This document shows, piece after piece, positions 3,864-31,763 of a DNA stretch of 44,354 nt. This stretch comes from Vectrevirus LF31P3: sequence record OZ035776.1; one strand, given 5' to 3'. The position numbers and the translations under genes are program-made. How positions within the stretch are numbered: the first letter of the stretch is position 1; the number at the start of each line of letters is the position of its first letter. The notes under the pieces are model-generated. The model ran no database searches. It was not told where the DNA came from and saw only the letters and a list, made by a program, of their open reading frames with translations.

Positions 3864-3892
3864 TACATAGCTTTATATATCAGTGTCTTACG

Positions 3893-3915
3893 ATTTACTG
3901 GACACTATAGAAGAG
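3893..3915 (+). promoter_or_regulatory. phage RNAP promoter (atttactggacactatagaagag), +1 G at 3910
   Basis: Full match to the most common promoter variant; upstream of the tailspike genes. Confidence 0.8.
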
Positions 3916-3994
3916 GTAAGATAGCGCCGTTCTTTTGAGCGGCCTATTACTAGCCAATCTTCATGGTGAGGGTTGGAAAGTAATAGGAGGTTTA

Positions 3995-8280: not shown

Positions 8281-9250
8281 TAAGCAGATTAATATCTTAG
8301 TGTACACAAGGGCAGACTTATGCTAGCTCACAGCACACCTATGAGTGCCGCTCTGGAGTCTATGACTTGTTCCCTGACTATCTAGGTTTGCTCTTAGTGT
8401 ATTCCAAAGGAGGTAACATGCAAGAGGAGAATTGGGATGTGTAATGTTGGATATGGAGAAGGTTGAACCTTAGTGTTGTACAAGGATTAACCAAAGTCAA
8501 AATTTTGATATAGGCGTGTGTCAGCTCTCTCGCCCTCGCCCTCGCCGGGTTGCCCCCATATGGGGTCGGTCGGCGGTTGACCTAGGAATTGGGCTGGGCG
8601 GGTCCGTCTTCAACCTGCTGCCGCAGGAAGCTCGACGGGTGGGCGAGGGCTTGCCTTGTACTCGCTTAGTGGTACACAAGGAGAGCGCCTAGGAAGCGCT
8701 AGGGCGCGCCTTAGTATTAGACAAGGTGATTGCCTTAGTTCAACCGCTTAGGGCTTACACGGGCCGTTTTAGGGCCACTCCTGAGCGTTTGACAGGGTGT
8801 GAGGGTGTGGGCTATCTGTTTGTTTCGTCGCTGGCGCTCCTCACTTCGTTTCGCTAGCGCTCCACTCACAAGCCTGACGTGTACCTTAGTTACTACCTTA
8901 TGCTATTACTTGATGGATAGCTTAGGTTAAACTTAGTGGACTACCTTAGTTAAAGCCTTAGTGCTTATCTTAGTAATAGCTTAGTAGTGTACCTTAGTAA
9001 GTCTTAGTGTCTTCTCTTAGTGATTGCACATGCAAGCATGTAAGATGCCATTAGGTCGCGGTCGGTAGACCGCTAAAGAGAGAGAATAGTAATAAGATGC
9101 AGTAGGAGGGACACCAGAAACCTAGCCAACCTAGCCTATCCTAGCTCTGTATCTATTGCTTTTCCTTAGTCTCACATGTTAGACAACCTAGGTTTACCTT
9201 AGTAGTTGTGACATGTATCACATAAATAATCTATCTTAGTGAAACTTAGT
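8280..9250. repeat. terminal-region short-repeat arrays (CTTAGT core, about 20 copies; densest 8880..9030)
   Basis: Repeated (c)cttagt(g/a) units in an ORF-free region between the last late gene and the first early promoter; analogous to repeat arrays near T7-group genome ends. Confidence 0.6.
8526..8650. repeat. GC-rich inverted-repeat element
   Basis: cgccctcgccctcgcc (8531..8546) is mirrored by gggcgagggc (8641..8650) about 100 nt away; internal palindrome ccccatatgggg; markedly more GC-rich than surrounding sequence. Confidence 0.5.
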
Positions 9251-9251
9251 G

Positions 9252-9280
9252 TTGACACCGACAATCAACAGGTATACATT
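9252..9280 (+). promoter_or_regulatory. host sigma70-type early promoter (TTGACA-N17-TACATT)
   Basis: Perfect -35 hexamer, 17-nt spacer, -10-like TACATT; upstream of first early ORFs. Confidence 0.55.
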
Positions 9281-9429
9281 AGCAATCACTGAGATGGACC
9301 TAGCAAGTTGTCTCAGGTTATAAGCAGGAGAATTGATGCGTAAGCCATAGCTAGTGGATGCAGTCGCATGAAGGCTTGAGTAAGGGGCCGTTTAATACCT
9401 TCTTCCTCTGGAGACAACGCTTATAACAC

Positions 9430-9445
9430 CGCTCTTTAACAATTT
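9430..9445 (+). promoter_or_regulatory. boxA-like antitermination element 1 (cgctctttaacaattt)
   Basis: Identical to the rrn-type boxA core GCTCTTTAACAATTT; in early leader. Confidence 0.6.
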
Positions 9446-9501
9446 GCTTAGTGTAACCTATGTATGCCGTGGTTAATTACTTATTGAATGAGGAATTAAC
9501 T

Positions 9502-9597
9502 ATGAATTACGAAGAAATGTACGAAGTTTACTTTAACTCGACTGATGAGGGCGAAGAAGTCTTGTCTTATGCTGAGTTTGTGGAGGCTTTATCATGA
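9502..9597 (+). CDS. small acidic early ORF (31 aa)
   Basis: gagga before ATG; ATGA overlap with next ORF. Confidence 0.3.
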   Translation: MNYEEMYEVYFNSTDEGEEVLSYAEFVEALS

Positions 9598-9759
9598 TTC
9601 TGAATAACCGTGAATTGTCCATTCTCTTCACTCTGTTATGCTACATGATTCGTAACAACGAATTACTTACAGATGACGAGTTGGCACTGTATCACCGCTT
9701 TATTAACGAAGGTTGGACCGATACAGTTAATCAATACCGTAACATGATAGATGAGTTGA

Positions 9760-9770
9760 GGGGGGGGGGG
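9760..9770. repeat. G11 homopolymer
   Basis: Eleven consecutive G read directly. Confidence 0.9.
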
Positions 9771-9772
9771 TT

Positions 9773-9982
<210 letters not shown>

Positions 9983-15095: not shown

Positions 15096-15118
15096 TGTGA
15101 GACTTATTTACCGGACAC
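15096..15118 (+). promoter_or_regulatory. phage RNAP promoter (atttaccggacactataggatag), +1 G at 15113
   Basis: CCGG variant of the promoter motif; first of two tandem promoters between RNAP and gene 1.1-like ORF. Confidence 0.7.
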
Positions 15119-15269
15119 TATAGGATAGCCGTCGGAGACGGGAAAGAAAGGGAAGATAAAGGATATAAAGGAAGTAATAGGTATTAAAGGTTATATAGGT
15201 TTACCTAGGAATACCTATTACCTTCTTCCTTCCTCTTATTTCTACTTAGAGGAAGGGCAGACCTAAGTT

Positions 15270-15470: not shown

Positions 15471-17459
15471 ATGGCTATTATTCAGAATGTACCGTGTCCT
15501 GCCTGTCAAAAGAATGGACATGATATTACTGGTAACCATCTTATGATATTTGAGGATGGCGCTGGTTACTGTAACCGTGGTCACTTCCATGATAACGGTA
15601 AACCTTATTACCACAAGCCGGAAGGTGGCATCGAGATAACCGAGTTACCTATTACTGGCAATATCAAATATACACCTTCTCAATTCAAAGAAATGGAGAA
15701 GGAAGGGAAGATAAGTGACCCTAAGCTACGCGCCATCGCACTTGGTGGTATGCGTATGAAAGACCGTTGGGAGGTTATGAATGAGCAAGAAAGGGCAGAC
15801 CAAGAAGCAGAGTGGAAACTTGATGTTGAATGGTTCCTCACGCTTAAGCGTAAGAACCTTGTATCCCGTCACATTCGAGGTGACATCGCAGCAATGTACG
15901 ATGTGCGCGTTGGACACGATGAAGAGGGAAGAGTCAACCGTCACTATTATCCACGATATGAAAAGGGTGTGCTTGTTGGAGCAAAATGCCGGACGTTGCC
16001 GAAGGATTTTAAGTTCGGACACCTAGGTAAACTCTTTGGTATGCAAGATCTTTTCGGTATGAACACTTTGTCTCACGTGTTAGACAAGGGGAGACGAAAG
16101 GATTGCTTGCTTATTGTAGGCGGTGAACTTGATGCACTAGCAGCGCAGCAGATGCTCCTTGATTCTGCCAAAGGTACTAAGTGGGAGGGTCAGCCATACC
16201 ATGTATGGTCTGTCAACAAAGGCGAGTCTTGCCTTGAAGAGATAGTGCAGAACCGTGAGCATATCGCCCAATTCAAGAAGATTATTTGGGGCTTCGATGG
16301 GGATGAGGTAGGGCAGAAGCAGAACCAGCAAGCGGCTCGCCTGTTTCCTGGCAAATCCTATATCCTTGAGTACCCTTCTGGTTGCAAAGATGCCAACAAG
16401 GCATTGATGGCTGGCAAGGCTAAAGAGTTTGTTGATGCATGGTTTAATGCCAAGTCATCTGATGAAGTCTTTGGTAGCCAGATTAAATCTATCGCATCTC
16501 AAAGGGATAAGCTCAAGGCTGCACGTCCAGAGCAAGGACTATCATGGCCTTGGCCTAAGCTGAACAAGGTAACGCTAGGTATTCGTAAGAACCAACTTAT
16601 CATTGTAGGTGCAGGATCTGGTGTAGGTAAGACTGAGTTCCTTCGTGAAGTAGTTAAGCACCTCATTGAAGAACACGGTGAATCTGTAGGCATCATTTCT
16701 ACAGAAGACCCGATGGTCAAGGTTTCCCGTGCTTTTATCGGCAAGTGGATTGATAAGCGTATTGAGTTACCGCCAACCAACGACCCGAAAGAAGATGGAT
16801 ACCGTGAGGTGTTCGACTACACCGAGGAAGAAGCTAACGCCGCCATTGATTATGTAGCTGATACAGGTAAGCTGTTTGTAGCTGACCTAGAGGGTGACTA
16901 TTCGATGGAAAAGGTAGAGCAAACTTGCCTAGAGTTTGAGGCTATGGGCATTTCTAATATCATCATTGATAACTTAACGGGGATTAAATTAGATGAGCGT
17001 GCTTTTGGTGGGAAGGTTGGTGCACTTGATGAATGCGTCAAGCGGATTGGTACTATCAAAGACCGACACCCGGTTACTATATTCCTTGTATCACACCTTA
17101 CACGTCCTCCGGCAAACCGTACCCAACACGAAGAAGGTGGCGAGGTTATCCTTTCTGACTTCCGAGGCTCAGGCGCTATCGGATTCTGGGCATCTTACGC
17201 CTTGGGGATTGAGCGTAATACAAGAGCTGAAACGCTTGACGAAAGGACTACCACGTACATCTCATGTGTCAAAGACCGCGACCAAGGTATCTACACTGGA
17301 ACCAAGGTCATGCTTAAGGGTGACATTCAAACCGGACGTTTAATGGAACCACAAGCCCGTACTAAGTCATTTGATACAGGTGAAGCAAGGCAACAAGAAG
17401 TACCAGATTTACCGGACACTATAGAAGAGACTAACTTCGATGAAGAAAGTGAGTTCTGA
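15471..17459 (+). CDS. DNA primase/helicase (T7 gp4-like)
   Basis: N-terminal zinc ribbon CPACQ...CNRGH; Walker A GAGSGVGKT; 662 aa. Confidence 0.95.
   Translation: MAIIQNVPCPACQKNGHDITGNHLMIFEDGAGYCNRGHFHDNGKPYYHKPEGGIEITELPITGNIKYTPSQFKEMEKEGKISDPKLRAIALGGMRMKDRWEVMNEQERADQEAEWKLDVEWFLTLKRKNLVSRHIRGDIAAMYDVRVGHDEEGRVNRHYYPRYEKGVLVGAKCRTLPKDFKFGHLGKLFGMQDLFGMNTLSHVLDKGRRKDCLLIVGGELDALAAQQMLLDSAKGTKWEGQPYHVWSVNKGESCLEEIVQNREHIAQFKKIIWGFDGDEVGQKQNQQAARLFPGKSYILEYPSGCKDANKALMAGKAKEFVDAWFNAKSSDEVFGSQIKSIASQRDKLKAARPEQGLSWPWPKLNKVTLGIRKNQLIIVGAGSGVGKTEFLREVVKHLIEEHGESVGIISTEDPMVKVSRAFIGKWIDKRIELPPTNDPKEDGYREVFDYTEEEANAAIDYVADTGKLFVADLEGDYSMEKVEQTCLEFEAMGISNIIIDNLTGIKLDERAFGGKVGALDECVKRIGTIKDRHPVTIFLVSHLTRPPANRTQHEEGGEVILSDFRGSGAIGFWASYALGIERNTRAETLDERTTTYISCVKDRDQGIYTGTKVMLKGDIQTGRLMEPQARTKSFDTGEARQQEVPDLPDTIEETNFDEESEF
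17407..17429 (+). promoter_or_regulatory. phage RNAP promoter (atttaccggacactatagaagag), +1 G at 17424
   Basis: Lies inside the 3' end of the primase/helicase gene. Confidence 0.7.
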
Positions 17460-17535: not shown

Positions 17536-18219
17536 ATGTGCAAATTAGTATTAAATGAAGGTGATAAAGTTCGTAATATTAATACACAATCTGAACGTAG
17601 AGGCTGGATTGGTTATGTAGGTGTCATTTCAGAGAACTATTATACTGTTATGTACACTAATGGTCATGCTCAAAGCTATCTTAAGCGATTAGCCCATAAA
17701 TATCTTGAGAAAATTGTAGAAGCAGACAACCAATGCAAGTGTATACATGATGAACTTTGTTATAAGTGTGCTCGCCAGATGCTTAAGAATTTCCTAGCTC
17801 CTCTTTATTATGGTGCTGGTCCTCAAACACTAGCAGAGTACATGGCAGAAAAGAAAACCACACTCAAGAAAGAGCGTCGCAATGTAATCACTGGTAAGAC
17901 TCAAAGTGAAATGATTAAGCAATGTGGCACTGCACTAGGTGTTACGCAGTTTAACACTCGTGCTCTTGGTAAATCCACAGGACAAGCTATGGTAAAGATT
18001 GGCGAAGCCATGATGCATCCAAATGTACCTGTACGAATCATGGATGTTGACCATGCAATCACAGAGCATGGCACACCACGGCGTGTAGCTAATAATCATT
18101 TCGCCGACACTATAGAAGGTATTATTCGTAAGCAAGGTTTGAAGGGTCTTCACATCTTAAATGGTGAAGAATTACTGTACCTACCTATCGTTACTGAAGA
18201 AACATACGTGAATATCTAA
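17536..18219 (+). CDS. hypothetical protein (227 aa, Cys-rich, visibly AT-rich codon usage)
   Basis: ggagat before ATG; Cys cluster CKCIHDELCYKC; no family recognised. Confidence 0.6.
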   Translation: MCKLVLNEGDKVRNINTQSERRGWIGYVGVISENYYTVMYTNGHAQSYLKRLAHKYLEKIVEADNQCKCIHDELCYKCARQMLKNFLAPLYYGAGPQTLAEYMAEKKTTLKKERRNVITGKTQSEMIKQCGTALGVTQFNTRALGKSTGQAMVKIGEAMMHPNVPVRIMDVDHAITEHGTPRRVANNHFADTIEGIIRKQGLKGLHILNGEELLYLPIVTEETYVNI

Positions 18220-21486: not shown

Positions 21487-21747
21487 ATGATTAAATACAC
21501 TGCTTATCAGTTAACTAAAGACCGTAAGATAGGTATTGAGGTTAAGGCTTGGGAGCGAGGTCATATCTCTGGAGTAATAGAGGTGCGTTCCAATGAAGGT
21601 ATGATGATTAGAAGACACTTTAGTTTCGCTAAATCTACTTGTAAGCATTTAACAGAGGAACAATTCTTACATCATATTATTAATAATATTAAAGCTATCC
21701 AACCTTATGCCAAGCAAGTTGTAGGTAATGTCACAGTAGTGCATTGA
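21487..21747 (+). CDS. hypothetical protein (86 aa)
   Basis: taaggaa before ATG; AT-rich. Confidence 0.5.
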   Translation: MIKYTAYQLTKDRKIGIEVKAWERGHISGVIEVRSNEGMMIRRHFSFAKSTCKHLTEEQFLHHIINNIKAIQPYAKQVVGNVTVVH

Positions 21748-21769
21748 TTTACTGGACACTATAGAAGGA
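21747..21769 (+). promoter_or_regulatory. phage RNAP promoter (atttactggacactatagaagga), +1 G at 21764
   Basis: Full motif match. Confidence 0.8.
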
Positions 21770-21832
21770 AGCCTAGCCAATCTAGGTTTATAAGGTAGTA
21801 TAGGTAATTAAGTAAATATAGGAGATATAAAC

Positions 21833-22210
21833 ATGTCTATGGTAACTACTCTGGTATTTGTAGCTCAATACTTTCGTGGTCTGGCTAATAAGTTCAAGTC
21901 CAAGGCTATCAAAGCTATTGAGTCTCGCATCGAGGCAGTACAGGCAGAGCAAGTTAAAGTTGAAGAACATCGTAGTTCTCAAATGATTGACTGCCATAAC
22001 CGCTACTATGAATCTCGTGATGACCTTAATGCACGCCAAGTCAAAGAGGTTGAAGAGATGCTGGCACGTCACCAGCAAGAGCGCGACAGCCTGAAAGCTG
22101 AATTTGAAGAGAACAAGGCATCCATCGCCCTTGTACATCAAGCCGCATCTGACAGCCTGAAGAAAGAGATTGTTATGCTGGAAATTGAGTTAGACAACCT
22201 GACCAAATAA
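21833..22210 (+). CDS. hypothetical coiled-coil protein (125 aa)
   Basis: aggag before ATG. Confidence 0.55.
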   Translation: MSMVTTLVFVAQYFRGLANKFKSKAIKAIESRIEAVQAEQVKVEEHRSSQMIDCHNRYYESRDDLNARQVKEVEEMLARHQQERDSLKAEFEENKASIALVHQAASDSLKKEIVMLEIELDNLTK

Positions 22211-22231
22211 TTACTGGACACTATAGAACAA
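22209..22231 (+). promoter_or_regulatory. phage RNAP promoter (aattactggacactatagaacaa), +1 G at 22226
   Basis: Motif match; overlaps the stop of the preceding gene. Confidence 0.7.
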
Positions 22232-22287
22232 TAGGTCGGCTTAGTTCGGCCTATGATTGTGTAGTGTAACAATAGGAGACTAAATAA

Positions 22288-23094
22288 ATGGCACGTGGTG
22301 ATTTTGATTTTGGTGCTCAGGTTACTAAAGCTGAAGGTAAGGTTTTTAAGAACCCTGAAGTTGGTGATCATGAAGCAGTAATCTCTGGCATCATTCATGT
22401 GGGTTCCTTCCAAGATATCTTTAAGAAAGGTAATACCACTGAAGTTAAGAAGCCAGCAAACTTTGTTCTTGTTAAGATTGTACTGATGGGTGACGATGAC
22501 AAGAACGAAGATGATTCTCGCATGGAACAGTGGATGGCTGTGCCTCTGAAGTCTGGTGACAAGGCAATCTTGACTAAGTTCCTGAATGCAGTTGACCCTA
22601 AAGAGCTGCTTGGTGGTTTCGATGACTTCATTGGTGAATGCCTGACTGCAACTATGGTTGGCTCTGGCGACAAGAATGATGATGGTACTTTCAAGTATGT
22701 TAACTGGAAAGGCTTTGGCGGTATGCCTGATAAGTTGAAGAAGCTTGTACTGGCTCAGGTAGAAGAGGAAGGTCTGTCTATGACAGGTCATATCACCTTC
22801 GACAAGCTGACCAAAGAAATCCTTGATGACATCCCAGCTAACTTGGTGCGTCAATACTTTCTTAATGAAACACCTCGTGGTAAGAACCTGTCTGTTGCTG
22901 GTTCTCACGTAGAAGCAATCATTAAAGCTGCTCGTGAAGAAGACCCAGAGTGGAAGAAAGCCAAGAAGAAAGATGACGAGGATGCTACTCCAGCTAATCG
23001 TAAATCTCTGGATACTGGTGAGTCTGTTCCACAGGAAGTACCTGAAGCAGAAGATACACCTGCACCGGAGATGGATGAGGACGCAGAATATTAA
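22288..23094 (+). CDS. hypothetical protein with acidic C-terminal tail ending in Tyr; candidate ssDNA-binding protein (T7 gp2.5-like role)
   Basis: 268 aa; taggagac before ATG; C-terminus EMDEDAEY resembles the acidic tail with terminal aromatic of phage SSBs. Functional call is inference. Confidence 0.45.
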   Translation: MARGDFDFGAQVTKAEGKVFKNPEVGDHEAVISGIIHVGSFQDIFKKGNTTEVKKPANFVLVKIVLMGDDDKNEDDSRMEQWMAVPLKSGDKAILTKFLNAVDPKELLGGFDDFIGECLTATMVGSGDKNDDGTFKYVNWKGFGGMPDKLKKLVLAQVEEEGLSMTGHITFDKLTKEILDDIPANLVRQYFLNETPRGKNLSVAGSHVEAIIKAAREEDPEWKKAKKKDDEDATPANRKSLDTGESVPQEVPEAEDTPAPEMDEDAEY

Positions 23095-23103
23095 GGAGAA
23101 CTG

Positions 23104-23322
23104 ATGAAAGTACAAATCATAACTCTGCATTGCAAGAAAGGAATCACCACGCTTGGCGGCAATACTTTCCACTCCTTCTCCGAGGGGGAGGTTTATTCTG
23201 ACCTGCACTACATCTGGCGCGATGGACAGCACGTGGTGAACTACAGCGACCCAGCTACGGGGAAACGCCACGGCGTATCGCTTCCGGCGCATGACATTGC
23301 TCAGGTGAACACAGTTTTATAA
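23104..23322 (+). CDS. hypothetical protein (72 aa)
   Basis: taaggaga before ATG. Confidence 0.5.
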   Translation: MKVQIITLHCKKGITTLGGNTFHSFSEGEVYSDLHYIWRDGQHVVNYSDPATGKRHGVSLPAHDIAQVNTVL

Positions 23323-23339: not shown

Positions 23340-23354
23340 AAATCGGTGTCCGGT

Positions 23355-23377
23355 ATTTACTGGACACTATAGAAGAG
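23355..23377 (+). promoter_or_regulatory. phage RNAP promoter (atttactggacactatagaagag), +1 G at 23372
   Basis: Full motif match. Confidence 0.8.
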
Positions 23378-23426
23378 AAGAATTTTAATCGGCGATAATG
23401 CCACAACTAACAAAGGAGAATTTAAT

Positions 23427-23798: not shown

Positions 23799-23804
23799 TT
23801 GATG

Positions 23805-23837
23805 CCCTGTCTGCCTTAGTGTAGGCAGGGTCTTTTG
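23805..23837 (+). terminator. terminator-like hairpin followed by tctttt
   Basis: ccctgtctgc ... gtaggcaggg stem with wobble pairs. Confidence 0.45.
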
Positions 23838-23862: not shown

Positions 23863-24159
23863 ATGCCGACTATTGAATCTCGTTTACGCGCTGACTATAA
23901 TAGATACTTTAGCCGCTTACATAGGGATTATATGACACACGTTACAGTATGGTTAGATGGTGAGATATTCTTAGTGTATGAGTATTTACATGATACGGAT
24001 GACCGCTATGACCCTAGTTCCCTCCAAGTAGCAAAGTCTATTGTAGAGCACATCTTGAAGGAGTGGCCTACATGCGACCAAACTTCGACTTCGGAGCTAC
24101 AGTATCGGAAGACAATAACCTGTTGCTGTGGCCAACTGAAGGTAATAGAATCGCTTTAA
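23863..24159 (+). CDS. hypothetical protein (98 aa), overlaps exonuclease start by about 88 nt
   Basis: ggagaatga before ATG; long overlap makes the true 3' end uncertain. Confidence 0.4.
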   Translation: MPTIESRLRADYNRYFSRLHRDYMTHVTVWLDGEIFLVYEYLHDTDDRYDPSSLQVAKSIVEHILKEWPTCDQTSTSELQYRKTITCCCGQLKVIESL

Positions 24160-25100
24160 TAGATGCTGACATGTTACCCTACATCGTAGGTTATACAATC
24201 AGTGACATGACTTATGTACGAGCCACAACTCGTGTTAAGTCAGGACAAGTCCCATCAATCAAAGATACACCTGAGTGTAAGCAAGCGTGTGACCGTGTGA
24301 ACTCCTTGCTTAACTCTTGGGTGTATGCAGCAGAGTGTGATGCAGCTAAGTTATTCATGACGAAATCAGAAGCTAACTTCCGTGTTCGCCTAGCCTTCAC
24401 CAAGCCTTATAAGGGTCAACGTAAGACCGAGAAGCCTCCGTTCTTCTATGAATTGCGAGAGCATCTCTTAGAGGTTCATGGTGCAATCCTGGCAGATGGA
24501 GAAGAGGCTGATGACCTCATGAGTATTGCACAATGGGACAGCCACCGCCGCTTCCAGCAAGATACAGGTAACGAGTTCCCTATCGGTAGCCCAGAGCATA
24601 AAGCATTCTCTGATACTTGCATCGTTTCCTTGGATAAGGATTTGATGATTGTTCCCGGTTGGCACCTTCAGCCGGGACAAGAGAAGAAATGGGTAGAGCC
24701 TATGGGTTGGCTTGAGTTACGCCGTAAGGCTAATGGTCAGGTTAAAGACCTTAAAGGTGCTGGCCTCATGTTTCATTATGCACAGATGATTATCGGTGAT
24801 GATATTGATAACTATGCTGGCATACCTGGACGTGGTGCTAAATACGCCTATGATCTTCTCAAAGATTGTAAGACAGAGAAAGAGTTGTATATGGCAGTGC
24901 TTGGTGCTTACAAGGCTAAGTTCGGACATGGACAAGTTAAGATTAAGAATTACCGAGGTGGTTATCGTATCGGCAAGGCTTTTGACCTGATGCTCGAATG
25001 TGGTCGCCTAGCTCACATGGCAAGATTCAAAGGTGATATATGGCGAGCCGATAAGAACCCAATCTTGTGGGGAGATGATGCGGAATGGTTAGCAAATTAA
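24072..25100 (+). CDS. 5'-3' exonuclease (T7 gp6-like, FEN family)
   Basis: Motifs IALIDADMLPY, KPYKGQRK, GEEADDL, GIPGRGAKYAYDLL; aaggag 8 nt before ATG at 24072. Confidence 0.9.
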   Translation: MRPNFDFGATVSEDNNLLLWPTEGNRIALIDADMLPYIVGYTISDMTYVRATTRVKSGQVPSIKDTPECKQACDRVNSLLNSWVYAAECDAAKLFMTKSEANFRVRLAFTKPYKGQRKTEKPPFFYELREHLLEVHGAILADGEEADDLMSIAQWDSHRRFQQDTGNEFPIGSPEHKAFSDTCIVSLDKDLMIVPGWHLQPGQEKKWVEPMGWLELRRKANGQVKDLKGAGLMFHYAQMIIGDDIDNYAGIPGRGAKYAYDLLKDCKTEKELYMAVLGAYKAKFGHGQVKIKNYRGGYRIGKAFDLMLECGRLAHMARFKGDIWRADKNPILWGDDAEWLAN

Positions 25101-25495
25101 AATCATCGGAGGTAGCAGCTTATAAGAGGGAATTGCTAGAGAAGCAAGGATGGAAGTGCCCACTATGTGGCGGCAGTCTCAAGGCTGTTACTCCTATAAA
25201 CCGTGTACTTGACCATGACCATGAGACAGGATTCTGCCGTGCTGTTGTATGCCGAGGCTGCAATGGTGCAGAAGGAAAGATTAAGGGTGTTATCTCTGGT
25301 TACGGTAAGGCTGGTAACAACCGTTACTTCCAGCTTCAATGGTTAGAGCGACTATATGAATACTGGAAGTTACATAGTACGCCTCAGACAGATAAGTTAT
25401 ATCACAAACATCAAACGGAGGCAGAGAAGCGCGAGGCTAAGAACCGTAAGGCACGCCTTGCTTATGCAAGAAAGAAGGAGGTTAAAGTTGGGTAA
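25085..25495 (+). CDS. endonuclease VII-like Holliday-junction resolvase (HNH-type zinc site)
   Basis: CPLCGG ... LDHDHETG ... CRGCNGAEG pattern as in T4 endo VII-type resolvases. Confidence 0.75.
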   Translation: MVSKLKSSEVAAYKRELLEKQGWKCPLCGGSLKAVTPINRVLDHDHETGFCRAVVCRGCNGAEGKIKGVISGYGKAGNNRYFQLQWLERLYEYWKLHSTPQTDKLYHKHQTEAEKREAKNRKARLAYARKKEVKVG

Positions 25496-26495
25496 GCTTC
25501 GCAGCTTGTACAAAGACTCCGAGGTACTTGATGCAATCGAGCAAGCTACCGACGAGAAAGGTAATGTTAATTACAATGAGATGGCACGTGTATTATCGTG
25601 TCACCCTGTGGGTAAGAAGATTACCCGCCAGTTGGCTCGATACTGGCATGGTCAATTCAAGAAGACCAAGAAGAATGGTGATTATTACCAGACCCTTCTG
25701 CAAGAAGATAAGCGTATCAAAGAAGAGCGTAAGCTCAGGACTCCTGACCGCTACGAGGATTTGGCTATTGTACCATTGCCTGACTCGCCTCATCGAAGTG
25801 TACTGGTAATCCCTGATACTCATGCACCTTATGAGCATCCAGATACCTTAGAGTTCCTTGCAGCAGTCGCGGCACGTTACCGTCCAGATACAGTGGTTCA
25901 CTTAGGAGATGAGGCAGATAAACACGCCCTCTCCTTCCATGACTCTGACCCGAATCTGGATAGTGCTGGCATGGAGCTAGAGAAGGCTCGTGTCTTCATG
26001 CACAAGTTGCACAAGATGTTCCCTGTGATGCGCCTGTGTCATTCTAATCACGGCTCTATGCACTTCCGTAAGGCAAGCGCCAAGGGTATTCCAGTGCAAT
26101 ATCTTCGCACCTACCGTGAAGTCTTCTTCCCAAATGGAGGTGGCGACCAGTGGGATTGGCAACATACGCACGTCCTTGAGTTGCCGAATGGTGAACAAGT
26201 GGCATTCAAGCATCAACCTGCTGGCTCTGTCCTAGCAGATGCAGCGCATGAGCGTATGAACCTTGTGTGTGGTCACTTGCACGGTAAGATGTCTGTGGAG
26301 TACGCACGTAATACACATGAACAGTATTGGGCTGTGCAAGGTGGCTGCTTAATTGATGAGTCATCCCGTGCATTTGCCTATGGTCGTGAGTCTAAATACA
26401 AGCCAGCATTAGGTTGTGTGGTCATTCTGGAGGGTGTGCCTCACATCGTCCCGATGCAAACCAATAGCGACAACCGTTGGATTGGCAAGATTTAG
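25488..26495 (+). CDS. calcineurin-like metallophosphoesterase
   Basis: Motifs IPDTHAPY (DxH), LGDEAD (GDxxD), CHSNHG (NH); TTG start 6 nt after aaggagg preferred over in-frame ATG at 25464 which lacks an SD. Confidence 0.7.
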   Translation: MGKLRSLYKDSEVLDAIEQATDEKGNVNYNEMARVLSCHPVGKKITRQLARYWHGQFKKTKKNGDYYQTLLQEDKRIKEERKLRTPDRYEDLAIVPLPDSPHRSVLVIPDTHAPYEHPDTLEFLAAVAARYRPDTVVHLGDEADKHALSFHDSDPNLDSAGMELEKARVFMHKLHKMFPVMRLCHSNHGSMHFRKASAKGIPVQYLRTYREVFFPNGGGDQWDWQHTHVLELPNGEQVAFKHQPAGSVLADAAHERMNLVCGHLHGKMSVEYARNTHEQYWAVQGGCLIDESSRAFAYGRESKYKPALGCVVILEGVPHIVPMQTNSDNRWIGKI

Positions 26496-26512
26496 TTGAC
26501 ACTATAGAACAA
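26490..26512 (+). promoter_or_regulatory. phage RNAP promoter (atttagttgacactatagaacaa), +1 G at 26507
   Basis: Closest of all to the canonical SP6 promoter as recalled (atttagGtgacactatag). Confidence 0.7.
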
Positions 26513-26595
26513 AGGGCTAGGTAAGACTTTATCGGCTGGCGTATCCAAATGATATTGCACTAGCCCTTGATTGTATAGTGAATGGAGGATTCAAT

Positions 26596-27099
26596 ATGTC
26601 ACACTATGAATGTAAGAAGTGTCATAAGCGTTATGATTACTGTACTTGTGGTCAAGAGAAAACATCTTTTAAAATTGGAGACAAGGTATTTCGTAATGAA
26701 AAAGATTCGATTCCTTGGAATCAATACTGCAAAGAAGCTGGTATTGACCCTGATAGCCCTGTAACCATAGATGATATTGATGGCATTAACTTGTGCTTTC
26801 GTGAGGTGAGGGGTACAGGTTGGGATTCCAAAAAATTCAAACTTGCATCTGATAAGTTAGACAACAATATGGTAACTCAGCCTAAGCACTACGAGTTCTT
26901 TGATGGTGTAGAGGCAATCACTATCATTGCCCGCAGTATGACTGAAAAGCAATTCGCTGGGTACTGCATGGGTAATGCCCTTAAGTATCGCCTGCGTGCA
27001 GGTAAGAAGTTCAATACTGAAGAAGACTTGAAGAAGGCAGACTATTATAAAGAGTTATTCCAGAAGCATCGTCACGAATGTATTGATGAGGATATTTAA
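26596..27099 (+). CDS. hypothetical protein with N-terminal zinc-ribbon (CKKCH...CTCG)
   Basis: ggagga 6 nt before ATG; AT-rich; no family assigned with confidence. Confidence 0.55.
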   Translation: MSHYECKKCHKRYDYCTCGQEKTSFKIGDKVFRNEKDSIPWNQYCKEAGIDPDSPVTIDDIDGINLCFREVRGTGWDSKKFKLASDKLDNNMVTQPKHYEFFDGVEAITIIARSMTEKQFAGYCMGNALKYRLRAGKKFNTEEDLKKADYYKELFQKHRHECIDEDI

Positions 27100-27100
27100 T

Positions 27101-27274
27101 ATGGAAGGTAAACTGTATAGAGGGTACTTCGGTAACTTATATAAAGTAAGCTCTCGCGGTTTTGTATTGACCTCTGATGATGAAGGTGCAATGTGGCACC
27201 TAAGTGCATATGGTTCTAACTTAGCATACTTTAAAGAGGCAATAGTCAAAGGTGTGATGAAGGAGGTGAAATGA
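27101..27274 (+). CDS. hypothetical small protein (57 aa)
   Basis: gagga before ATG; overlaps upstream stop. Confidence 0.4.
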   Translation: MEGKLYRGYFGNLYKVSSRGFVLTSDDEGAMWHLSAYGSNLAYFKEAIVKGVMKEVK

Positions 27275-28218
27275 ATATCTTCCAATTCCTAGGCCTTCCA
27301 GAAGACCACCGCAACCACCCATTCATGCTGGTGAAGCATCGCGGTGAAGTACCTGAGAAGAAACTAACATTTCCATGTTATGCACAGGTGAAACGAGATG
27401 GTATCTTTTCTGCTGTTGTTATTCGCACTGATGGTGTCGTTGGCATTTTTGGTCGCACTGGTAAGAAACTGGCAAACACTGAAGGCCTCGAACAAACATT
27501 TGCTACCTTTCCGGTTGGCATTTATCTTGGTGAGCTTCAGTCTATGGCCATTGATATCTACCTTGAGGCAATCTCTGGGGTTGTGAACCCTAATCGCACT
27601 GAGCCACTTGATTTCATAGGCCAGCAGATTAAAGACAACCTGTATATCGACTTCTTCGATATGTTAACTATTAAGGCATTCCATGATGGATTCACTGATG
27701 TTTCTTATCTCAAACGTTACGATGCTTTACATCGCCGCATCGGCGCTCATCTTAGCGGGTACAACGCTATCCTTCCTATTACTCCTTGCCATAATGAGCG
27801 AGAAGTTGAAGCGTTTGCGCAAGAGCAGATAGACGCAGGCCGAGAAGGTGCTGTGTTTAAACTGGACTGTGATTATGAAGCAGGACATAAAGGTTATCGT
27901 CAGACTAAAGAAGTCCGTAAGGTAACTTATGACCTTACTTGTATTGGCTTTGAAGAAGGTAAAGGTAAGTACAAAGGTAAGGTAGCTAACCTCATTTTCA
28001 AATGGAAAGGAGGCAAGACAATCAAAGCTATGTTAGGTAAAGGGTGGACTCATGCAGATGCAGAACAGATGTTCCACGATATTAAACATGGTGGGCGATT
28101 GAATGTCATTGGTAAAATCTTTGAAGTCAAAGGTCTTCAGGATTCAAGCAAGGGCAACATTCGTCTGCCCAAAGCGGGAGAATTAAGACATGACAAAGAT
28201 GAACCAGATTTCTTTTGA
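27271..28218 (+). CDS. ATP-dependent ligase (nucleotidyltransferase superfamily; DNA ligase-like)
   Basis: Motif I KRDGIF (adenylation lysine), motif IV EGAVFK, lysine-rich motif V region; gaaggagg before ATG. Confidence 0.75.
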   Translation: MNIFQFLGLPEDHRNHPFMLVKHRGEVPEKKLTFPCYAQVKRDGIFSAVVIRTDGVVGIFGRTGKKLANTEGLEQTFATFPVGIYLGELQSMAIDIYLEAISGVVNPNRTEPLDFIGQQIKDNLYIDFFDMLTIKAFHDGFTDVSYLKRYDALHRRIGAHLSGYNAILPITPCHNEREVEAFAQEQIDAGREGAVFKLDCDYEAGHKGYRQTKEVRKVTYDLTCIGFEEGKGKYKGKVANLIFKWKGGKTIKAMLGKGWTHADAEQMFHDIKHGGRLNVIGKIFEVKGLQDSSKGNIRLPKAGELRHDKDEPDFF

Positions 28219-28406: not shown

Positions 28407-28535
28407 ATGGAGATGCTTGAGATAATTCTCAAGCCTTCTTCTCCGAAGGTGACTAAGACTCATGAAGAGTTAATCGTCGATGAAGTGAAGCGTTACATCA
28501 TGGATTGTGTCAGAGCACAACTGGTGGTCCAATGA
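28407..28535 (+). CDS. hypothetical small ORF (42 aa)
   Basis: gaagga before ATG; ATGA overlap with next gene. Confidence 0.3.
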   Translation: MEMLEIILKPSSPKVTKTHEELIVDEVKRYIMDCVRAQLVVQ

Positions 28536-28993
28536 TACGTCCAGCTTCCTTCCTAGATATTCCTGAGATTATAAACCTTGGGAATAAATATGTGGAAGAG
28601 GAAGTCAAGGTAGTGGCCCATCACTCAGCCTCATGGAATGCAGAACAAAGCGCACATAACCTTTGCGCATCTCTTAGTAGAGAAGATTTATTCCTATGGG
28701 TTGCTGTAGATGAAGGGCGGATTGTAGGGTTCCTGTGGGCTGGCTATCACGAGTTGGCCCCTTGGACACCTGTAAGGGTTGCCTCTGACATTCTCTTTTA
28801 TATTATACCAGAGAAGCGAGGAACCCTACTTGGTATGCGTCTCATCAAAGCCCTAAAGCAATGGGCTAGTGATAATGAATGCTCTGAGGTTCGCCTGTCT
28901 ATCGCCTCTGGTATTAATGAAGAACGTGTCGGACGTATGTATAAGCGACTTGGCTTTGAACCGTTTGGCACTGTGTACAACCTGAAGTTCTAA
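28532..28993 (+). CDS. putative GNAT-family N-acetyltransferase
   Basis: Motif-A-like EKRGTLLGMRLIKAL and C-terminal YKRLGFEP; start is the internal ATG at 28532. Confidence 0.5.
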   Translation: MIRPASFLDIPEIINLGNKYVEEEVKVVAHHSASWNAEQSAHNLCASLSREDLFLWVAVDEGRIVGFLWAGYHELAPWTPVRVASDILFYIIPEKRGTLLGMRLIKALKQWASDNECSEVRLSIASGINEERVGRMYKRLGFEPFGTVYNLKF

Positions 28994-31684: not shown

Positions 31685-31690
31685 TTCAGT

Positions 31691-31713
31691 ATTTACTGGA
31701 CACTATAGAAGGG
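31691..31713 (+). promoter_or_regulatory. phage RNAP promoter (atttactggacactatagaaggg), +1 G at 31708
   Basis: Full motif, followed by gggaga; upstream of capsid gene. Confidence 0.85.
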
Positions 31714-31763
31714 AGAAAAGTTCTCCCTAGTTATCAATTTGATTTATAAGGAGATTATAATAC

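Follow-up and report, generated by a model that had tools for sequence, protein, structure and literature searches.

A conserved gene cluster for endonuclease VII, a metallophosphoesterase, a gp1.7-like kinase and a variant DNA ligase in Vectrevirus LF31P3

Results

Gene content of the cluster

The sequence analysed here is the 44,354-nucleotide record OZ035776.1 of Vectrevirus LF31P3, a K1E/K1-5/SP6-like phage genome (Autographiviridae, Molineuxvirinae); this whole stretch is referred to as the window. We examined the gene cluster at positions 25085-28218, in which an earlier annotation made from the letters only (hereafter the sequence-only reading) had recognised an endonuclease VII-like resolvase, a calcineurin-like metallophosphoesterase, a zinc-ribbon protein and a ligase with an unusual adenylation motif, and had proposed that the phosphoesterase and the ligase form an end-healing and end-sealing module against host nucleases. 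The four proteins were found on the + strand where that reading had placed them, and every open reading frame (ORF) of the cluster lies on this strand. The profile hidden Markov model (HMM) searches that it had suggested assigned all four at the family level, the endonuclease VII, kinase and ligase above the Pfam cut-offs and the phosphoesterase just below that of PF00149. Two further elements, which it did not mention, are a conserved 57-aa ORF (27101-27274) and an SP6-type promoter (around 26487-26515). As argued below, the cluster is probably part of an ordinary DNA-metabolism block. Its features are the following.

24072..25100, + strand: T7 gp6-like 5'-3' exonuclease (phrog_107 exonuclease, E=4.8e-73), context just upstream of the cluster
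25085..25495, + strand: endonuclease VII, 136 aa, a T4 gp49-type junction-resolving/branch-cutting nuclease (PF02945, phrog_423, PDB 1e7d)
25488..26495, + strand: metallophosphoesterase, 335 aa (phrog_221, near-threshold PF00149, invariant metal-site motifs)
26487..26515, + strand: promoter of the SP6 type for the phage RNA polymerase, GATTTAGTTGACACTATAGAACAAAGG, identified by direct reading of the letters and located between the phosphoesterase gene and the kinase gene
26596..27099, + strand: T7 gp1.7-like nucleotide kinase, 167 aa (PF11753, phrog_1689, BLASTP to T7 gp1.7)
27101..27274, + strand: conserved 57-aa ORF (phrog_15259, E=4.4e-37), annotated in phage VEc3
27271..28218, + strand: ATP-dependent DNA ligase, 315 aa, nucleotidyltransferase and OB domain (PF01068, PF14743, phrog_114, AlphaFold2 (AF2) model, Foldseek)
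27391..27408, + strand: ligase motif I K41-R-D-G-I-F46 (KRDGIF), from the translation and the alignment with 9fzx and T7 ligase

Region 25085-28218 matched 110 phage records by megablast, and in 69 of them a single match spanned at least 80% of its length; because of these matches, the ORFs of the cluster are taken as genes and not as chance reading frames. The best match, Vectrevirus T147P1, covered 100% of the query at 97.8% identity; Vectrevirus records as a whole ranged from 87 to 98% in nucleotide identity, and the hosts of the matching phages were Escherichia, Salmonella, Klebsiella and Proteus. The matched records already name endonuclease VII, metallophosphoesterase, nucleotide kinase and DNA ligase. 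The cluster is thus known, being annotated in more than 100 genomes, and the window holds one more near-identical copy. In Escherichia phage VEc3 the gene order is DNA polymerase, small ORFs, exonuclease, endonuclease VII, metallophosphoesterase, nucleotide kinase, hypothetical protein, DNA ligase, small ORFs, acetyltransferase, head-tail adaptor, scaffold and capsid. The region most likely closes the class II (DNA-metabolism) block, and the structural genes follow directly after it. The counterparts of its proteins in SP6 are gp21 (exonuclease), gp22 (endonuclease), gp23 (unknown) and gp25 (DNA ligase) (PMC4837284).

The ligase has a DNA-ligase architecture and variant motifs I and V

The 315-aa protein matched the ATP-dependent DNA ligase family PF01068 over residues 33-208 (28.9 bits, cut-off 26.2), its C-terminal OB domain matched PF14743 (38 bits, cut-off 28) and the protein matched phrog_114 (E=4e-72). 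An AF2 model with a predicted local distance difference test (pLDDT) of 93 was compared with the PDB using Foldseek. All of the top 50 matches were ATP-dependent DNA ligases, the best being the Prochlorococcus ligase (Pmar-Lig) 6rar (E=5.9e-20), and they included the ligases of African swine fever virus (ASFV), Rhizobium phage (9fzx), T4, Chlorella virus and T7 as well as LigE. Likewise, searching the PDB sequences with the ligase profile returned DNA ligases only. No RNA-ligase Pfam family matched at E<=0.01 and no RNA ligase was among the 50 best structural matches. An identity as an RNA ligase (Rnl1, Rnl2 and related) was accordingly rejected, since the OB domain with motif VI is present and RNA-ligase matches were lacking in both Pfam and structure searches. 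By architecture, then, the protein is predicted to be a DNA ligase; its substrate preference is beyond proof from sequence, and the caveat of the sequence-only reading that DNA and RNA substrates cannot be told apart at this level still holds.

The catalytic motifs were intact, with two departures. Across 41 homologues the invariant residues were K41, D43 and G44 of motif I, R62, E88 (motif III), D130 (IIIa), E192-G193 (IV), and K207 and K213 in the motif V region. In motif VI, RxPKxxxxRxDK, residues R298, K301, R306, D308 and K309 were invariant in the same 41 sequences and conserved in at least 83% of 123 clade representatives. KRDGIF aligns with KFDGIR of PDB 9fzx and KYDGVR of T7 ligase, so that the adenylation core K-x-D-G is present and the terminal arginine is not: K41 is the predicted AMP-accepting lysine and F46 stands in place of the usual arginine. 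This agrees with the sequence-only reading, which had pointed to KRDGIF in place of KxDGxR.

The substitution was not peculiar to this genome. Nearly all of 120 homologues, reaching down to 49% identity, had Phe or Tyr at position 46. When 1.84 billion representative proteins were searched with a profile, 142 clusters matched at E<=1e-30 and 1,793 at E<=1e-10; of 123 full-length representatives, 49 had Tyr at position 46, 35 had Phe, 12 had Ser, 7 had Trp and a single one had Arg. Given the rarity of the motif I arginine in these representatives, KRDGIF is therefore a hallmark of a large clade of phage ligases of about 300 aa, and a clade-wide trait of hundreds of them.

The second departure lies in motif V, GHKGYRQTKEV (residues 205-215, window 27883-27915), which has one conserved lysine, K213, where the canonical motif is KxK. 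K213 was conserved in 98% of the clade, and the position of the second lysine is taken by Q211 or V215 depending on the alignment: HHalign and 9fzx placed K213 at one motif V lysine, MAFFT and Pmar-Lig at the other. K197, in the motif IV region, was Lys or Arg in 85% of the representatives.

As the reaction proceeds in canonical ligases, the arginine of motif I forms hydrogen bonds first with O2' and then with O3' of the AMP ribose (PMC7470946). Because this residue normally contacts the AMP ribose, some compensation must exist in the clade. Three clade-specific basic residues, R109 (84%), R149 (98%) and K233 (99%), are presumed to provide it. The N-terminal R14 was also considered as a compensator and was rejected, being invariant in the close alignment and present in only 50% of the wider clade. 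We found no published assay of an SP6-clade ligase.

The metallophosphoesterase has a complete metal site and overlaps the endonuclease VII gene

In the phosphoesterase, a helical domain of about 100 aa at the N-terminus precedes a calcineurin-like core of the dinuclear-metal type. The protein matched phrog_221 (E=2e-105), and PF00149 at 21.3 bits, marginally below the cut-off of 21.5. All five metal-binding motifs of the calcineurin-like superfamily, DxH / GDxxD / (G)NH / H / GHxH, were present, and the residues concerned (D110-x-H112, G140-D-E-x-D144, N187-H188, H242 and G262-H-x-H265) were invariant in 40 homologues down to 48% identity. This substantiates the class assignment that the sequence-only reading had made from the DxH, GDxxD and NH motifs. 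The N-terminal region of about 100 aa was also conserved in the 40-homologue alignment; taken in isolation, it matched no Pfam family at E<=10. The protein had no match among PDB sequences, either with the single sequence or with the 40-sequence profile.

The true start is the TTG at 25488, as in annotated relatives, with AAGGAGG about 6 bases upstream. An ATG at 25356 was tried as the start and rejected in favour of this codon. The TTG overlaps the stop of the endonuclease VII gene by 8 nt.

In fold comparisons the phosphoesterase was nearest to YfcE-, DP1- and Mre11-type phosphodiesterases/nucleases, with match figures of about 12 for the polymerase B-subunits and Vps29 and of 10.4-11.5 for Mre11 and SbcD; Pnkp ranked only 51st. 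The lambda-phosphatase/PPP/Pnkp clade carries the signature GDxHG ... GDxxDRG ... GNHE. The window protein lacks the GDxxDRG and GNHE of this clade and has LGDEADKH and SNHG in their stead. A BFVD fold search returned only unnamed proteins or generic phage 'calcineurin-like phosphoesterases' that carry no functional assignment, and some phage records label the protein 'protein phosphatase 2a-like'. Membership of PdeM, the ligase-associated endonuclease family TIGR04123, was tried and rejected at 21.4 bits against a cut-off of 150 (E=1.3e-4); the matching part, residues 158-190 of the long ORF, amounts to the motif II region, and no single stretch reaches the cut-off by itself.

Shortened versions of the protein were noted in databases. 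BFVD/UniProt lists two entries for the phage K1E phosphoesterase, A0A2I4Q1Z7 with the N-terminal domain (104 aa) and A0A2I4Q1Y4 with the catalytic core (237 aa), which suggests a frameshift or an annotation split in the reference, and Klebsiella phage IME184 likewise has a 229-aa version.

The literature on phosphoesterase or ligase function in SP6, K1E and K1-5 yielded only genome-annotation papers. Mycobacteriophage A10ZJ24 Gp48 is a metallophosphoesterase with phosphodiesterase activity that damages or degrades host DNA and is required to overcome host defences (PMC12287305). We use it as a precedent at the level of the superfamily only.

The adjacent nucleases

Endonuclease VII was identified by PF02945 (47.7 bits, cut-off 23.6), by phrog_423 (E=2e-47) and by alignment with T4 endonuclease VII (PDB 1e7d, E=4.9e-8) over residues 14-99, in which the zinc cysteines C25xxC28 and C56xxC59 and the active-site residues D43-H-D-H46, N60 and E63 are in register; the resolvase of the sequence-only reading was thus confirmed. 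Its gene shares its first 16 bases with the end of the exonuclease gene, for which the start annotated in VEc3 was adopted; the match of the exonuclease to PF01367 was below the Pfam threshold. As a side observation, endonuclease VII is exchanged in a mosaic pattern: in loci L005, L009, L013, L014 and L020 of the set described next it is only 56-72% identical, with the adjoining exonuclease and phosphoesterase at about 80-99%.

The constant partner of the phosphoesterase is endonuclease VII

Gene neighbourhoods were compared in two sets of 80 IMG/VR loci, one centred on the phosphoesterase and the other on the ligase; the members of these sets lack phylogenetic independence, so that the counts are descriptive. 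Endonuclease VII was located within 700 bp upstream of the phosphoesterase in 65 of the 69 loci with enough upstream sequence (28/28, 9/9 and 28/32 by bin of identity to the window phosphoesterase). Ligases were detected with a clade HMM on six-frame ORFs, which replaced a tBLASTN search that had under-detected divergent ligases (39/68). A ligase within 4 kb downstream was found in 46 of 68 loci (27/27 close, 10/13 intermediate and 9/28 distant). The other 22 comprised 17 with no ligase in the fetched sequence and 5 with a weak match elsewhere in the locus. In three distant loci a weak ligase match was located 5-7 kb upstream, a T7-like placement. At least 15 phosphoesterase loci with 8-kb flanks had no ligase in the fetched sequence. 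Seen from the ligase, the phosphoesterase was upstream in 39 of 59 loci, and the remaining 20 (including L113 and L157, from 45-kb contigs, whose ligase is about 55% identical to that of the window) carried the variant ligase and endonuclease VII with no phosphoesterase. The DUF3310 kinase was present in 16 of 27 close loci and essentially absent from the distant ones. These counts show that either of the two genes, phosphoesterase and ligase, can be found without the other, and that the constant partner of the phosphoesterase is endonuclease VII.

A gp1.7-like kinase, a 57-aa ORF and an intervening promoter

The protein that the sequence-only reading had called a zinc-ribbon protein does carry an N-terminal cysteine cluster, CxxC...CxC; its C-terminal half is the DUF3310 domain, which makes it a T7 gp1.7-type nucleotide kinase. 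It matched PF11753 (87.2 bits, cut-off 24) and phrog_1689 (E=2.7e-44), and its residues 93-162 aligned with residues 122-194 of T7 gp1.7 at 64% identity over 73 residues (BLASTP, E=9e-31). T7 gp1.7, a nucleotide kinase, raises dTMP and dGMP to the diphosphate level (PMC11897194). The DUF3310 protein is its counterpart, and kinase activity is predicted from this homology. No Pfam family matched the isolated N-terminal half at E<=10, nor the 57-aa ORF at the same threshold. The latter varies among close relatives, being present in some and missing in others (e.g. L003 and L004).

The segment between the phosphoesterase and ligase genes, window 26596-27274, is a mosaic hot spot (at about 9080-9790 in loci L003-L021): the flanking genes are 95-100% identical in relatives, yet the kinase falls to about 60-65% identity or is shortened. 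Several of the megablast matches to the region reach 95% query coverage in two pieces.

The promoter before the kinase gene is one of 11 SP6/K1E-type promoter-like sites in the window, all on the + strand and of the form ATTTAC[T/C]GGACACTATAGAAG:

118-146, 2223-2251, 3890-3918, 15103-15131 and 17404-17432, + strand: promoter-like sites 1-5
18095-18123, 21744-21772, 22206-22234, 23352-23380, 26487-26515 and 31688-31716, + strand: promoter-like sites 6-11

The site at 26487 is the variant ATTTAGTTGACACTATAGAAC, the sole one of the 11 with TTGACAC, which we take to be closer than the others to the classical SP6 consensus.

Other features near the cluster

A GNAT acetyltransferase gene (PF00583, phrog_1249; window 28505-28993) directly precedes the portal gene, a position kept in SP6-like loci and in more distant ones, down to an identity of about 30%. 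On the other side, a strong terminator-like hairpin at 23804-23831 (11 bp, 6 GC pairs, then CTTTTG) lies about 30 bp upstream of a small ORF (23863-24159) running into the start of the exonuclease gene. An antisense 384-aa ORF at 22138-23292 (- strand) was considered and is almost certainly spurious, with uniform + strand coding and no support for it; it overlaps a + strand gene (22288-23094) and a promoter region. No exact terminal repeat of 21 bases or more was present in the window.

Discussion

The findings presented here are likely to reflect an ordinary DNA-metabolism block in which the phosphoesterase is a DNA phosphodiesterase or nuclease and not the end-healing partner of the ligase. 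The parts of this picture differ in strength. We assign the ligase with high confidence as the DNA ligase of the replication block, while we would give the assignment of the phosphoesterase as a DNA phosphodiesterase or nuclease, taken by itself, a little less than an even chance. In T7, gp3 and gp6 serve both the breakdown of host DNA and the processing of replication and recombination intermediates, gp1.7 recycles deoxynucleoside monophosphates and gp1.3 seals nicks. We infer that the block works in the same way, with endonuclease VII in the role of gp3. The ligase would form a K41-AMP intermediate, in which step motif VI in its OB domain would hold ATP in position, and would seal Okazaki-fragment and recombination nicks in phage DNA. 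The phosphoesterase, for its part, is expected to be an active dinuclear-metal enzyme that is translationally coupled to endonuclease VII and may act on DNA beside it and the exonuclease, either in host-DNA breakdown or in the processing of replication and recombination intermediates; it would not heal ends for the ligase.

Several points weigh against this picture. The linkage of ligase and phosphoesterase is real, the two genes lying within 4 kb in 46 of 68 loci and in the same replication block. No biochemically characterised member of the ligase clade or of the phosphoesterase family was found in the literature. In addition, loss of the motif I arginine and of a motif V lysine is expected to cripple a canonical DNA ligase, and compensation for it is our assumption. 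These variant motifs could instead mark the KxDGx[Y/F] ligases with a single motif V lysine as a functionally distinct class, which might handle the nucleotide cofactor in another way, act on RNA-containing or unusual ends, or need a partner, and which together with the endonuclease VII-coupled phosphoesterase and the kinase would heal and seal nucleic-acid damage by host defence nucleases in SP6-like phages; we consider this very unlikely.

Non-canonical motifs I and V, and the consecutive order of the phosphoesterase, kinase and ligase genes, are also what could be cited for RNA repair. According to this explanation, the phosphoesterase heals 2',3'-cyclic or 3'-phosphate RNA ends and the variant ligase seals them to counteract host anticodon nucleases, in a module resembling T4 Pnkp/Rnl1 or bacterial Pnkp/Hen1; the 5'-kinase step might then come from the gp1.7-like kinase. 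The ligase, however, has the DNA-ligase domain pair with motif VI and neither an RNA-ligase Pfam match nor an RNA ligase in its structural top 50, the phosphoesterase lacks GDxxDRG and GNHE with Pnkp ranking 51st, and T7 gp1.7 is a mononucleotide kinase. Moreover, the three genes are not co-inherited (kinase in 16/27 close loci, ligase without phosphoesterase in 20/59, no nearby ligase in 22/68), and a promoter lies between the phosphoesterase gene and the two genes for kinase and ligase. We regard RNA healing and sealing as extremely improbable. More generally, the DNA-ligase architecture, the separable genes and the intervening promoter do not support the end-healing and sealing module against host nucleases that the sequence-only reading had put forward.

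A pairing of the two enzymes on DNA deserves somewhat more weight. By analogy with the bacterial clusters of ligase-associated PdeM (MPE), Lhr and ATP-dependent ligase, the phosphoesterase could clean blocked or damaged ends (3'-phosphates or flaps left by host defence nucleases) for the ligase to seal. The TIGR04123 match (E=1.3e-4), the ligase within 4 kb downstream in 46 of 68 loci and a fold nearest to the nuclease and phosphodiesterase members of the superfamily point in this direction. On the other hand, the PdeM match reached 21 bits against a cut-off of 150 and covered the motif II region only, the two genes are separable in both directions, and the phosphoesterase is far more tightly coupled to endonuclease VII, all of which leave such a pair rather unlikely. 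We think it similarly doubtful, if by a shade less so, that the phosphoesterase is a protein phosphatase or a small-molecule phosphodiesterase (acting on Ap4A, cyclic nucleotides or (p)ppGpp-like signals) that serves host takeover or anti-defence. Some records do name it 'protein phosphatase 2a-like', but its conserved translational coupling to endonuclease VII, in a block otherwise made up of DNA enzymes, argues against this, as does the additional conserved helical N-terminal domain, which has no family match and would be compatible with nucleic-acid binding. A DNA-directed phosphoesterase beside endonuclease VII remains our preferred reading.

As a locus, the cluster is a routine annotation of a known phage genus and matters little. 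It does draw attention to a large and widespread clade of small phage DNA ligases from which the arginine of motif I and one lysine of motif V, both deemed catalytically important in model ligases, have been lost, and how these variants compensate would be of interest to ligase enzymologists and enzyme engineers. SP6/K1E-type phages are in therapeutic use, and the phosphoesterase, highly conserved and coupled to endonuclease VII, is among the few genes of their DNA-metabolism block left with no assigned function.

Comparison with known systems

The closest counterpart is the block of SP6 (gp21-gp25), K1E, K1-5 and VEc3, in which exonuclease, endonuclease VII, phosphoesterase, DUF3310 kinase, ligase, GNAT and portal follow in the same order; the SP6 ligase is 80% identical to that of the window at the protein level. 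There is no substantive difference, the kinase and the 57-aa ORF being mosaic in close relatives. The kinase resembles T7 gp1.7 in its C-terminal 70 residues (64% identical), its Cys-rich N-terminus and a nearby phage ligase gene, whereas the N-terminal halves cannot be aligned.

The ligase shares the nucleotidyltransferase and OB fold, the Lys-x-Asp-Gly of motif I, motifs III, IIIa and IV and motif VI RxPKxxxxRxDK with the minimal DNA ligases (Chlorella virus PBCV-1, T7 gp1.3, LigE and 9fzx; structural E values of 1e-15 to 1e-20). Unlike them, it ends motif I with Phe, has one motif V lysine, carries R109, R149 and K233 and has an N-terminal extension of about 20 aa, and sequence identity is just 16-21%.

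The phosphoesterase shares the calcineurin-like fold and the DxH/GDxxD/NH/H/GHxH metal site with E. coli YfcE, MJ0936, PolD DP1 and Mre11/SbcD. The phosphatase module of bacterial Pnkp/Hen1 is also of the calcineurin type, and both this system and T4 Pnkp and Rnl1 likewise encode phosphoesterase, kinase and adenylyltransferase close together. In contrast to these RNA-repair systems, the window ligase is of the DNA type with an OB domain and does not belong to the Rnl enzymes, GDxxDRG and GNHE are missing from the phosphoesterase, the kinase is homologous to a mononucleotide kinase and not a P-loop polynucleotide kinase, and the genes are not inherited as a unit.

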